From the IMG/VR virus record IMGVR_UViG_3300028888_000001: DNA of 64,000 bases; one strand, written 5' to 3'. How positions within the stretch are numbered: position 1 is the stretch's first letter; every line of letters starts with the position of its first letter. Position numbers and translations under genes: made by a program. Below the pieces are notes generated by a model. It was not told the DNA's origin, searched no databases, and saw only the letters and a list, made by a program, of their open reading frames with translations. This document shows positions 36,408 through 48,096 of the stretch, in pieces. This DNA comes from a virus (lineage: Duplodnaviria; Caudoviricetes).

Positions 36408-38936
36408 TTATTGATAGATCGCTGAATAATTTATTATTTTTTCTTCTACAAATTCAGACGATTCTTCAACATAATCTATATCAAATGTTACATGCTTTGG
36501 GCCTCCTATACGGACTAAATGGATATTTTTATTAGTTCTATCTATTACAACAATATCAAATGCTTGTTCTGTTATTGTACCCTTGGTGCGATCAAAACCC
36601 ATAAGATCTGCATTGCCTTGAGAATCTACCCATGGAACACAATTATCTTCTGTAATTATAATAAATGGAACGCCGCCTGGAGAAGTCCAAGCCCCATCGC
36701 TATGAGTATGCCCACTAAAAGATGCGATTACTTTTTTATTTTGATTATTTGAATTGAACGTATCAACAATTCCCCATAATTTAATCGTATTAGAATTTGA
36801 TGTGCTTATAACTCCAAGCCCATTACCAGTGGTCAATAATACTGCATGAGAAAATATTATTATTTCCCATCCATCATCAACATCCATTGCAACATTTTCA
36901 AGCCAACTCCATTGATCTGCAGTCATTCCTCCAGGTGTTATTAAATTATCATTTTCATCATAATAGTATGGATTAAACCAATTAAGCATAATATATCTTA
37001 TTTTTTGTTGATAATTATTAACGTAATAGTACTGATATTTAGCATCTCCGTAAACTTTATCTTGTTCATCATTTTGATCCATAGAATACATTATAAATGC
37101 TTCATTTATTTCATTACCGCCAGTATAAAACCACTCATGATTCCCCATAGCATGATAATATTTACCAGGAAAATATTTTTTAATATCGCTATAACATAAA
37201 GTAGCATCTCTAGCTCTATCAACATCATCCCCAGTATTAAAAAGTTTACGAATATATGTATTATTATAAATATAATTTAATAATTTAGGAGAATTATGTC
37301 CTCCTGCTCTATTATAATGCATATCCGATATCCAAGCAAAACAATCACCTGTGGAAATATTATTTTGAATAAGCTCGTTAATTCTAGATATTTTATTATC
37401 TAAATAATCATTTTCAAAATAATACTCTGGAATTTCTACATTGGATTCAGAATTACTTTTTAGTAAATCTGCTTTTTGCATTCTATCATATAAAGTTTTT
37501 GGATCTACGTAGTCAGATACATCTTTATCTGCAATATAACCAGTAAAAGTTTTGCTTTTTTCAATTAATATATTTCTAGGAACTATTTTAGTCCAATCAT
37601 CATTATTTGCTAAATACGTCATAAATGTTATATATGCCGTATTTTCAAAAGTAGTAAATTGAAATATGCCATTTGTTTGATTATTATATCTAGCAATATC
37701 TGTTCCGCTAAAATCATTTTTAACTATAGTTTTATTACTATCAAACTGTATTATATAAACGCGATAATTCAAATCTTCATCATATTCATAATAAAATACA
37801 TAATCAGTGCTAGGCTCAACTGGTATAAACTCTCTAACAGCTGAATTATTTTGAGCATCGGTATTGGCTTTTGATACGAATTTTCCGTTATTAGTACCAC
37901 CATTTCTATGACCTTGTTCAAATAATAATGAATCATCCCATAAATTTTTTGATTTGCTTGCAATTAAGAAATTGCTTAATTTATTATTGATCCCTTCTAA
38001 TTCATTTCTTTGACAATAATTTAACTTAACTTCTTTGTATTCGCCCTTGTAAAATTTTAAATCATATTTTTCTAGAATAGGATCTGTAATAATTTTATTA
38101 TTAATCGTCTGATTTGAGGGAAATGATAAAATAATTTTTGCATAAGCACATTCTGAATCCGTTGTTAAAGTAAAATAATTAATTGCATTAACGACAGTGT
38201 ACTGAGCACGTTTAATAAATGTGTAATCAGATTTATACTGAGCAAGCATAATATAGGAAGCATCATTACATTGTATAGTATATAAAGTATTTGGATCGAC
38301 TGGTATGTACTGTGAACTTCTAACATTACTTGAACGCGCCTCAAATTCTCCAGTACTAATTATATTGCCGGATTCAAAGTCTGGTATTTCTATATATTCT
38401 AATTCCGGATAATATCCAATTTCAGTTTTAGTGATTATTTCCTTATCGTATTTGGTAACCACATCATCATTTAAGACATACTTATTTAAATTATCATTGT
38501 TAATATTTTCATCGACTTCATATAATTTAACGTTTGTAAACTGGTATGTTTCACCAGCATACTCTTGTTGAGCTCTTATTGGATAAAAGCCAAACCTAAT
38601 ATAATTAAAATTTTCTATATCGCCAATAATGTTATTTGATATATATACGATATCGTCTGTATTAAAATAATAGTTATTATGAGTCCCATCAAGATATTGT
38701 ACCATAATATAGCCTAAAAGATCATCTGTTTTATATCCATTATAATTATCAAATGTTAAATAATATCCATATTTGTTAATATTATCATATGGTATCTGGT
38801 TGGCAAATAAATAAAAACCAAAACCACCATTTGTTACATTTATTTCTACTGTATCCATTTCTATAATAATTTTACCGTTTGAATTATTGAATACATTATT
38901 ATAATTTTCTTCTAAATCCACCAAATCGTTAGAAAG
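36408..38936 (-). CDS. Cassette A: beta-rich repeats plus C-terminal calcineurin-like metallophosphoesterase; headless, begins at the LSND site
   Basis: Motifs SDMH, TGDDVD, GNHE, FSH and GHTH. The frame reads CTT TCT AAC GAT (LSND) from 38936. No RBS. Confidence 0.8.
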   Translation of the reverse strand, partial: LSNDLVDLEENYNNVFNNSNGKIIIEMDTVEINVTNGGFGFYLFANQIPYDNINKYGYYLTFDNYNGYKTDDLLGYIMVQYLDGTHNNYYFNTDDIVYISNNIIGDIENFNYIRFGFYPIRAQQEYAGETYQFTNVKLYEVDENINNDNLNKYVLNDDVVTKYDKEIITKTEIGYYPELEYIEIPDFESGNIISTGEFEARSSNVRSSQYIPVDPNTLYTIQCNDASYIMLAQYKSDYTFIKRAQYTVVNAINYFTLTTDSECAYAKIILSFPSNQTINNKIITDPILEKYDLKFYKGEYKEVKLNYCQRNELEGINNKLSNFLIASKSKNLWDDSLLFEQGHRNGGTNNGKFVSKANTDAQNNSAVREFIPVEPSTDYVFYYEYDEDLNYRVYIIQFDSNKTIVKNDFSGTDIARYNNQTNGIFQFTTFENTAYITFMTYLANNDDWTKIVPRNILIEKSKTFTGYIADKDVSDYVDPKTLYDRMQKADLLKSNSESNVEIPEYYFENDYLDNKISRINELIQNNISTGDCFAWISDMHYNRAGGHNSPKLLNYIYNNTYIRKLFNTGDDVDRARDATLCYSDIKKYFPGKYYHAMGNHEWFYTGGNEINEAFIMYSMDQNDEQDKVYGDAKYQYYYVNNYQQKIRYIMLNWFNPYYYDENDNLITPGGMTADQWSWLENVAMDVDDGWEIIIFSHAVLLTTGNGLGVISTSNSNTIKLWGIVDTFNSNNQNKKVIASFSGHTHSDGAWTSPGGVPFIIITEDNCVPWVDSQGNADLMGFDRTKGTITEQAFDIVVIDRTNKNIHLVRIGGPKHVTFDIDYVEESSEFVEEKIINYSAIYQ

Positions 38937-45861: not shown

Positions 45862-48096
45862 TTTGAAGATTTAGAGAATAATGAATTAGAAAATCTATAT
45901 TTATTATATAAACAAACATATGATTCGCATGAAATAAATATTAGCATGATTGATAGTTTAGAGCAAGGCAATATTCAAAATGGCGATAATAGCAGTACCA
46001 ATCAATTAGCTAGATTAAGGTCTGGAGAATATTATTCATGTAAAGATTATGATTTTTTAATAACTCCGTATCATTATCTTAGATTATATTTAGTATTTTA
46101 TGATGAAAATAAAATATGGGATAGTACTGCTAATATAGAAGATACCGATATTTTATACATTAATAAATCTAAATCATATTTTAGATGCGTTATAATTGAT
46201 CGCTCCGATTTAAATTCTTGGTCAACACCAATATCTGTAGACGATGTAAAATATAAAGTATTCATGGGTAAATACAATTTTAATAATTTTTATAAGAATT
46301 ATAATAATATTAAAGGTATTGAAAAGGATAATAATATTTTATTTTTTATTAATGATCTGGAAGCAGGTAATATTCAAGAAGGTGTTCCTAATAGTAATAA
46401 TTATGCTGCAAGAGTTAGAACAAAAAATTTTTATTTAACTAAAGACTATGATAAAATAATTTCTAATTATAATTTTATAGTTTTTATTAATTATTATGAT
46501 TCTGATAATAATGATACGTATCAAACGACTTCTAGTAAGGAATTATCCGAAGCCAATAATGAAATAATTATAAATAAAAATTACTCATACTTTAAAATTG
46601 TATTTATTGATTTTACAGAAGCTAATTATTTAACTCCGATAACTCCATACCAAGTGAGATCATTAGCCTTTTTAGCAAAGACGACTAATGAAACCGAAGC
46701 GTCATTATCCCAAATTAAAAAAGAAATAGATAATAAAATTACAATTTTAGATAATAAAAACTATTTACTTCATAATAAAGGTTATAATGTTACTGCTATA
46801 TATGATTGGGAGCAGGGTAATATTCAAGACGGCATTCCTAACAATAGTTCATATGAAGCAAGAGTTAGAACAAAAAATTTTTATTTATGTAAAGATTATA
46901 AAAAATTAGTTACGATTAAAACAACTTTACGTTTATATTTAACATTTTATAATTCAGATTATATTTATTTAAATAGTATCGAAGGTAATGGAGAATTAGC
47001 CATAGATCAATCAGCTACATATTTTAAATCTGTTATAATTGATCGCTCCGATTTAAATTCTTGGTCAACACCAATAACTCCAGATGATGTAATAACTAAT
47101 ATATTTTTAGTAGAATCTATCGAAGAATTAAATGAAAATGGAGATGCCGTTCCAAATTATTTTAAAACGCAATTAGAGACAGTTTCTAATGATGCATTAT
47201 ATCATAGTGCATCCGTTGGCAAAAATGGGGTTTCATTTATTTTTTGTACCGATTTACATTGGTCAGTAAATCAAAAACATAGTGCAGCTTTAATGAAAGA
47301 AGTAATTAATAATACATTAATTAATACTATAATCTTGGGTGGGGATTATATAAATCAATTTAATGGCGGCAAAGAATATGCTATAACAAATATGAGAGAT
47401 TGCATTTCTAAATATTGGAAATTATCGGATAGAGTATTTCCCATATTTGGTAATCATGATAGAAATTCTAATGGTACTCCTGTAGAAGCCTATATGACTG
47501 AAGATGAAGCTTATATAGAATTAAATAGATGGATTAATCCAATAGCTAAATACGCTGATGATGATTATTTTTCTTATTATTTCGATGATGAAAAATCAAA
47601 TACGCGATTTATAATTTTTAAATCAGCAACTCAATCTATTTCATCTGATATTACTGATTCTACTATAAATTGGGTTGAGTCTAAAGTATTAGAATTGCCA
47701 AAAAATTGGCATGTGATACTAGCATCTCATTGGATAACTACTGGACAAACTTCTTGGGATCATCCAATGGATAATGACGGGACGTACACTGGTAGGTTGA
47801 CTAATAATGCAAAAAAATTATTTGATAAAATGGAAGTTATCAATAATGATTCAACAAAATGCACAATTGAATGTGGCATATTTGGTCATATTCATTGTGA
47901 TGTAGTTATGAATGATTTATATAGTTTCCCAATTATATTTACAGACACAGATGGAAATTTGGCACTTGGAATTTATCCATTTGAAGAGGGCACAGTAAAT
48001 GAACAATGTTTTGATATAATAACTATAGATTATAATAATAAAACTGTTTATTGTGATCGTATTGGACGCGGTGTAAGTAGAGAAGTAAATTATTAA
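45850..48096 (+). CDS. Cassette D: three N-terminal repeats plus calcineurin-like metallophosphoesterase; headless, begins at the LSND site
   Basis: The frame is open from 45850 (LSNDFEDLENN...), 32 codons before the ATG at 45946. Three copies of E.GNIQ.G...AR.R...Y..KDY. Motifs TDLH, GGDY, GNHD, SHW and GHIH. Confidence 0.8.
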   Translation, partial: LSNDFEDLENNELENLYLLYKQTYDSHEINISMIDSLEQGNIQNGDNSSTNQLARLRSGEYYSCKDYDFLITPYHYLRLYLVFYDENKIWDSTANIEDTDILYINKSKSYFRCVIIDRSDLNSWSTPISVDDVKYKVFMGKYNFNNFYKNYNNIKGIEKDNNILFFINDLEAGNIQEGVPNSNNYAARVRTKNFYLTKDYDKIISNYNFIVFINYYDSDNNDTYQTTSSKELSEANNEIIINKNYSYFKIVFIDFTEANYLTPITPYQVRSLAFLAKTTNETEASLSQIKKEIDNKITILDNKNYLLHNKGYNVTAIYDWEQGNIQDGIPNNSSYEARVRTKNFYLCKDYKKLVTIKTTLRLYLTFYNSDYIYLNSIEGNGELAIDQSATYFKSVIIDRSDLNSWSTPITPDDVITNIFLVESIEELNENGDAVPNYFKTQLETVSNDALYHSASVGKNGVSFIFCTDLHWSVNQKHSAALMKEVINNTLINTIILGGDYINQFNGGKEYAITNMRDCISKYWKLSDRVFPIFGNHDRNSNGTPVEAYMTEDEAYIELNRWINPIAKYADDDYFSYYFDDEKSNTRFIIFKSATQSISSDITDSTINWVESKVLELPKNWHVILASHWITTGQTSWDHPMDNDGTYTGRLTNNAKKLFDKMEVINNDSTKCTIECGIFGHIHCDVVMNDLYSFPIIFTDTDGNLALGIYPFEEGTVNEQCFDIITIDYNNKTVYCDRIGRGVSREVNY

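Follow-up and report, generated by a model that had tools for sequence, protein, structure and literature searches.

The phage shufflons known from the literature come from small temperate phages, and each occupies a compact locus of a few kilobases. In the Rin shufflon of Bifidobacterium prophages, five tips of 95-100 residues lie in one compact locus beside the recombinase, which uses an 11-bp site (PMC6109161). The pilV shufflon of plasmids R64 and TP114 acts on a pilus adhesin through small clustered segments without passenger genes, and its sites have a conserved 12-bp right arm (PMC9045228). In Min (p15B), Gin (Mu), Cin (P1) and the BV01-like shufflon, the C-terminus of a tail fibre is switched by inversion at short in-frame sites (PMC6109161, PMC13596623); these systems are local (1.7 kb in the BV01-like phages) and reside in small temperate phages or phage-plasmids. 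Here we analyze IMG/VR virus record IMGVR_UViG_3300028888_000001, from which a stretch of 64,000 nucleotides (hereafter the window) contains four long open reading frames (ORFs) that begin at an identical 12-bp site and lack starts of their own (silent cassettes A-D). The switch to which they appear to belong spans the 313-kb genome of a jumbo phage, and a genome-wide tail-spike shufflon is probably its best explanation.

The system resembles Rin in having a phage-encoded XerD-like tyrosine recombinase, a short asymmetric in-frame site and a constant N-terminus with unrelated C-terminal tips; the target of Rin is a receptor-binding protein. It is unlike Rin in its 14 tips of 506-1033 residues, which carry enzyme domains and are dispersed over 313 kb with core genes inside the segments. 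Moreover, pairs of tips are parked on linkers with a hairpin, the constant region occupies a two-site module of its own and two recombinases are encoded. A tyrosine recombinase, a 7-bp crossover core, segments with two convergent partial ORFs and a constant N-terminus are also found in the R64/TP114 system (Rci, sfx; PMC9045228), but the segments here measure 5.9-140 kb. Min, Gin and Cin use serine recombinases, whereas the enzymes here are tyrosine recombinases. The Mpi system acts locally on short promoter regions and is not known to bring distant cassettes together with a single expression site. Mpi of Bacteroides fragilis (mentioned in PMC6109161) is nevertheless similar in that one invertase serves sites at many places in the genome; unlike the enzymes considered here, it is a serine recombinase. 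Integrons, in turn, hold tandem, co-oriented whole-gene cassettes with attC, whereas the present cassettes are start-less, form divergent pairs and share no conserved 3' site.

Several hallmarks of shufflons are thus found: a constant 5' part read in frame through the site, a core of ~7 bp within an asymmetric site, a linked tyrosine recombinase with intact motifs, inverted-site segments with convergent partial ORFs and, between assemblies of relatives, alternative arrangements with breakpoints at the sites. A clustered locus and the conserved 12-bp right arm are absent. Therefore, we consider the system a variant of the shufflon kind rather than a member of the Rin or R64 families. We found no paper describing a dispersed or jumbo-phage shufflon in a literature search that left subscription journals mostly outside. 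The crAss002 paper does not describe a phage shufflon.

The 12-bp site, its linkers and the cassettes

The contig of 313,331 bp has a 127-nt terminal overlap, and the genome is therefore taken to be a circle of 313,204 bp. Genome positions (G) follow the orientation of the window; a window position equals G minus 239,791, and a position in the deposited contig (G000:C1) equals 313,332 minus G. The four copies of the 12-mer CTTTCTAACGAT that a preliminary description had reported in the window are exact matches, and each opens in frame one of the four ORFs of about 750-960 codons noted there (Table 1). That description also predicted further cassettes elsewhere, and the genome indeed holds 14 exact copies of the 12-mer versus 0.06 expected under an order-2 Markov model. 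All 14 open ORFs of 506-1033 codons in the same frame (L-S-N-D), 13 of them silent cassettes; the fourteenth is the tip of an expressed late gene. Twelve copies are arranged in six linkers, one is solo and one lies inside the expressed gene.

The full common element is a linker of 84 bp, in which two inverted, outward-facing 12-bp sites flank a 60-bp spacer with a 9-bp hairpin that scores as terminator-like. The six linkers (G 16910, 40420, 46370, 186530, 278716 and 285569) occur in both orientations and differ from one another at 0-2 positions. The solo site (G 28902) faces away from the expression site, follows a hairpin and has 8 further upstream bases in common with the expression site. 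Across all 14 sites only TT is conserved past the 12-mer, and a search for a conserved 3' recombination site behind the cassettes found none. The sites split the circle into seven segments of 5.9, 6.4, 6.8, 11.9, 44.6, 92.1 and 140.1 kb, every one of which is bounded by inverted sites and has an inward-pointing start-less cassette at both ends. The segments, which contain core genes, are connected by the six linkers and by one 5.1-kb module with the constant region.

Table 1. Features of the cassette region in window coordinates
Feature	Position	Strand	Description
Silent cassette A	36408-38936	-	842 codons from site; C-terminal metallophosphoesterase motifs DxH, GDxxD, GNH, GHxH
Linker 1	38925-39008		Sites 38925-38936 (-) and 38997-39008 (+), 60-bp spacer
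Hairpin of linker 1	38974-38995		9 bp; terminator-like on minus strand
Silent cassette B	38997-41255	+	752 codons; C-terminal calcineurin-like phosphoesterase (Pfam PF00149, E 1.7e-8)
Ordinary gene	41379-42848	-	489 residues, with Shine-Dalgarno sequence; passenger in the 6.8-kb segment between cassettes B and C
Silent cassette C	42907-45789	-	960 codons; C-terminal SGNH-type motifs GDS, GxND, GGVHP
Linker 2	45778-45861		Sites 45778-45789 (-) and 45850-45861 (+); 82 of 84 bases as in linker 1
Hairpin of linker 2	45827-45848		9 bp
Silent cassette D	45850-48096	+	748 codons; C-terminal calcineurin-like phosphoesterase (Pfam PF00149, E 4.7e-8)

The reported lack of translation and transcription signals holds well beyond the window. 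No Shine-Dalgarno (SD)-like word precedes the first ATG in any of the 14 cassettes, and the linkers contain neither an SD nor either of the two phage promoter motifs. One of these, AACA-N6-TA (late), is found in 45 of 170 regions upstream of ordinary genes (5% expected); the other, RTATATTATA (probably early), in 25 of the 170 (1.4% expected). A scan for sigma-70 promoters gave matches at chance level only. As described before, the first ATG comes 110 codons after the site in cassette B and 32 codons after it in cassette D, and in all four window cassettes both other frames close within 22 codons of the site. At three linker ends an ATG does stand in frame with the site, 6-7 codons ahead of it and lacking an SD; one of these belongs to cassette C, where it lies seven codons upstream, inside the linker (window 45808-45810). 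Among the RNA contigs of run X2, one falls on a silent cassette; level and strand are unreadable from contigs, and the RNA contigs were therefore set aside.

The preliminary description had seen neither a constant region nor a recombinase in the window; it suggested looking for a recombinase and predicted elsewhere one expressed gene having a promoter, a ribosome-binding site and a long N-terminus that reads into LSND. Such a gene is found at G 32868-36218 (G000:C1 277114-280464, minus strand). It encodes 1116 residues, has a strong SD and comes third in an operon of the 5.1-kb module, with the late motif in front of the first gene. The 12-mer follows 391 codons, so that a constant N-terminus of 391 residues continues in frame into LSND. 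The genome contains the expressed tip only once (the next best match has 35% amino acid identity). The expression site is separated by 62-69 kb from the window cassettes and by 152 kb from two other cassettes; A and C are inverted relative to it, at distances of 68.5 and 61.7 kb on the circle.

Two tyrosine recombinases, 83% identical at the amino acid level, are encoded at G 42344-43369 and G 188183-189208. Both genes start just behind a cassette, with the RTATATTATA motif and an SD. The proteins match PF00589 (E 7e-26 and 1e-24) and PF13495, their closest solved structures are XerA and XerD, and the catalytic motifs R, K, HxxR, H and Y are intact in both copies. In relatives, homologues with 47-85% identity likewise lie directly behind cassettes. 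A 58%-identical homologue (L090 10001-10951, L091 1044-1994) is not directly behind a cassette and has a Peptidase_S74 gene nearby.

Several side observations are worth recording separately. The second recombinase gene (L004 1125-2150, minus strand) starts with ATG TAT AAC GAT, which contains the site core, and has a one-mismatch site further in; autoregulation is possible, or chance. A 95-bp remnant resembling the 3' end of a recombinase gene lies between a helix-turn-helix-like gene and a cassette (L001 2508-2602). The expression module includes a tRNA-Ile(TAT) (L001 17037-17112) whose 5' end holds the site core on the other strand (CTAACGAT); about 0.2 such words are expected there by a rough estimate, and chance is thus possible. 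Within the window, a core gene contains in antisense (25881-25892, plus strand) CTTTCTAACGAG, the exact site variant of the switching cassette of L109-L113, which may be a secondary site or a chance occurrence, and another gene contains a match to the GTTTCTAACGAT variant (23508-23519, minus strand). Near-identical terminator hairpins of one family (window 36333-36358 and 41351-41374) stand behind many genes and about half of the cassettes, and could supply short homology for swapping cassette 3' ends. The passenger gene between B and C matches nothing in Pfam or PHROG. The cassette with a GDPD domain at G 186541 (L004 3792-5612) has 36% G+C and a third-position G+C (GC3) of 0.31, compared with 25-30% and 0.12-0.17 in the other 13; this composition suggests a different source.

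Junctions at the site in related phages

Comparison with related phages placed the switch exactly at the site. Contigs L050 and L051 match the constant region (81% nucleotide identity) as far as the last base of the site, beyond which a different SGNH tip follows; the same contigs carry the solo site, linkers and an adjacent recombinase. The contigs L074 and L077 come from a single metagenome, and the 2237 bp leading up to the site are 96.8% identical between them. Past it they differ in both tips and core genes, and the homologues of those core genes in the present genome (G000) are far apart. In P0253 the constant region bears a third tip, corresponding to one that is silent in L074 (47 of 58 residues). 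Cassette A itself turned out to be an expressed tip in another phage: the 324,695-bp contig L100 has the constant region fused to its counterpart (90.5% amino acid identity over 842 of 842 residues, 91.9% at the nucleotide level), and the 40 bases upstream are identical to the G000 expression site. Tips that are fused in one phage and parked in another support the idea, put forward in the preliminary description, that the cassettes are silent C-terminal modules swapped onto a constant N-terminus by site-specific recombination.

The position of the crossover can be narrowed down in one group of close relatives. The same tip is fused to the constant region in L109-L111, whereas in L112 and L113 it is parked behind a linker, at opposite ends. 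Of the 5818 bases that start with the site, two distinguish L112 from L110; one belongs to the site itself and the other to the far linker. In this group the bases ahead of CTAACGA track the upstream partner and the G behind it tracks the tip, which places the crossover within these 7 bp. TAACGA is invariant among the closer relatives. More distant phages, with recombinases 47-51% identical, keep the layout but have the site changed to TTTCTAGTGAT. Overall, relatives retain the site, the frame and a hairpin of other sequence in the linkers, whereas the linker sequence and the ATGs inside it are not kept. Cassette 3' boundaries fall near stop codons or terminators. At L109 10560, 10621, 14849 and 74, pairs of different cassettes begin with the same several codons, as if recombining slightly past the site.

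Larger rearrangements have breakpoints at the same places. In L051 and L100 (about 95% nucleotide identity), the module lies on opposite sides of the recombinase segment and is inverted, and either layout could be reached from the other by inversions at the sites. L114 and L115 have an identical recombinase and linker and are 96.4% identical over 11.2 kb, after which different core blocks follow. If gene order follows that of G000, the blocks are consistent with being the two ends of one inverted block of ~24 kb. Two full-length assemblies have their first base at such a place. L099, a second assembly of the present phage and identical to it throughout the 40 kb compared, begins with the expression-site 12-mer, and scaffold L101 begins with the core common to the sites of its species. 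A minority junction to some other upstream partner would produce such openings; the evidence from them is indirect. In relatives L051, L102 and L114, cassette joints adjoin homologues of an SNF2-type helicase and of the RNA polymerase beta subunit, genes that occupy 48195-50294 and 53310-57680 in the window.

We also looked for switched joints in sequencing data. One run, from a sheep gut metagenome, holds the DNA in full and may be the source of the phage. In a comparison with the 20-kb region that includes the expression site, its contigs span the expression and solo sites unbroken at a depth of ~27. No switched joint was present among the matches listed for this run (contigs, likeness 85, with many matches from other organisms), which speaks neither for nor against switching as contigs lose rare variants. 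About two-thirds of the metagenome pattern matches were unrelated genes with the same words. Three IMG/VR pattern scans and a recombinase scan gave nothing real, and a constant-region scan gave short repeat matches only.

Enzyme tips and the fusion protein

Most tips end in an enzyme domain, and two are without any match. Calcineurin-like phosphoesterases are the tips A (by motifs), B, D and the expressed one (by Pfam). SGNH/GDSL domains terminate C (by motifs) and three others (by Pfam, one below the cut-off). GDPD tips number two above the cut-off and one weak, and a single beta-helix tip is below it. Matches to virion families were obtained for cassette A (PHROG tail family, E 2.5e-10) and cassette C (PHROG virion structural protein, E 2.8e-39, as well as neck and tail families). 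Neither A nor C has a sequence match in PDB, and single-sequence AlphaFold gave no usable model of A (predicted local distance difference test, pLDDT, 36).

The 50 residues that directly precede the site constitute a motif found in several hundred proteins (670 matches), and the site thus lies at a widely used joint. Three copies of constant-region residues 188-395 were predicted as a complex with a score of 0.68, the best control having 0.00; the mark for this score is reached by 20 of 30 solved pairs and by 1 of 23 single chains, and the runs share at least 75% of contacts with pLDDT of at least 63. The predicted trimer contacts extend to the residues just before LSND. The model supports, although it does not show, that the constant region builds a trimeric fibre. 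SGNH domains are known at the C-terminus of tail fibres, one of them being a capsule deacetylase (PMC11058221), and titles cited in PMC6116005 include a baseplate glycerophosphodiesterase and a teichoic-acid-degrading appendage protein. Given the late motif, the weak tail-family matches, the predicted trimer and tip enzymes of kinds found in tail proteins, the fusion protein is likely a spike acting on cell-surface polymers. It would then be the receptor-binding spike of the virion, as the preliminary description had proposed, and a change of tip would be expected to change host range. The RNA polymerase beta subunit encoded in the window has its nearest matches (29-33% identity) in Bacillus phages PBS1, AR9 and Goe21 and in staphylococcal jumbo phages. 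The host of this 313-kb phage is presumably Gram-positive.

Mechanism, alternatives and implications

Joining of the tips at the site by site-specific recombination is very likely in our estimation, and routine long-range inversion is the likely main route of tip change. We propose a shufflon whose invertible segments would make up the entire circular phage genome. A phage-encoded tyrosine recombinase would exchange strands within CTAACGA, and the two encoded enzymes may catalyze the joining. If the expression site recombined with a silent site in inverted orientation, the interval would be inverted, the constant region would receive a new enzyme tip and the old one would be parked behind a linker. 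The geometry is that of inversion because every segment is bounded by inverted sites. Cassettes A and C would be one inversion away from expression; B and D would need two, the first flipping either the module or their own segment. The linkers would act as neutral parking joints with a terminator. With the recombinases under the probably early motif and their target under the late one, rearrangement could precede synthesis of the spike. A likely second process is that co-infecting genomes exchange tips, with the site serving at one end.

Some observations weigh against this proposal. Cassette sets turn over much faster than core genes (common cassettes are 0 of 6 between L051 and L100, and 1 of 4 between L102 and L103), so that inversion alone is insufficient and horizontal replacement must also operate. 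All arrangements were compared between short-read assemblies of different strains or samples. Assignment of the protein to the tail is weak: the constant region matches a PHROG tail family at E 3e-6, and Atlas scores are below 0.9. Finally, deletion between direct sites would have to be avoided in some way.

The closest competitor retains the same site and recombinase but has tips change mainly when co-infecting genomes exchange them or when small circles, such as the 5.9-kb cassette-recombinase-cassette segment, are excised and re-integrated. Replacement of cassettes at fixed positions beside unchanged core neighbours (L102 versus L103) favours it, as do 3' boundaries near stop codons and terminators with no conserved site and a recombinase gene that is duplicated and travels with cassettes. 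Furthermore, between the phages that have cassette A in common its identity is 92%, compared with 76-88% for the DNA of their constant regions and recombinases. However, the near-identical strains L110 and L112 differ only upstream of one cassette, the module and blocks of core genes shift position and orientation at the sites, and all segments are flanked by inverted sites. The two processes can coexist, but we consider it unlikely that exchange is the main one, and infer that tips are switched by inversion within one lineage. A still smaller chance is left to the possibility that the cassettes are independent genes, translated from own or leaky starts, with the 84-bp element being a small mobile or regulatory repeat. 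Intact reading frames and catalytic motifs, and the ATGs ahead of the site at three linker ends, would fit such genes. Yet the linkers lack an SD and phage promoter motifs, all 14 sites are in a single frame, the same ORFs are found fused to the constant region, and relatives lose the ATGs together with the linker sequence while preserving site, frame and hairpin.

The two remaining explanations seem to us the least credible of all. If silent tips were copied into the expression site by gene conversion, as in the case of pilin or vlsE silent cassettes, a single expression site with many silent partial genes would be expected, as is seen here, and the first codons common to some L109 tips could be its traces. 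However, the expressed tip lacks a silent twin in the genome, which argues against copying. In addition, the cassettes have no mutual 3' homology to complete the conversion, and in L074 versus L077 downstream core genes change along with the tip. The differing junctions might also be misassemblies at repeated linkers, since every sequence used comes from a short-read metagenome assembly and the 84-92-bp linkers are indeed places where contigs end. Only joins past a whole linker (L114 versus L115) are exposed to this objection. The expression junction has just 7-22 bases in common with other sites, less than the assembler word sizes given in the record names (k87, k141), and a de Bruijn assembler therefore cannot invent the join. 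Moreover, the arrangement repeats in separate assemblies (L050 and L051; L109-L111; L100 and L101).

In contrast to the small tips of known systems, whole enzyme domains are swapped here. In its furthest-reaching form, the proposed shufflon would make the whole chromosome of this clade run as one: intervals of tens to 150 kb would be inverted during infection, any of the 14 tips could be expressed, gene order among progeny would be fluid, and new tips would be taken from co-infecting relatives, amounting to an open shared library of receptor-modifying enzymes. We lean towards this extension by a narrow measure. If the switch is active, it would explain how a phage could track changing Gram-positive cell surfaces with one attachment protein. 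Gene order in the clade would be prone to change at predictable positions, a concern for genome assembly and comparison in this group. The clade would also offer dozens of cell-surface esterases and phosphodiesterases as a natural library built on one common joint, together with a tyrosine recombinase seemingly working on 7-bp cores over more than 60 kb.

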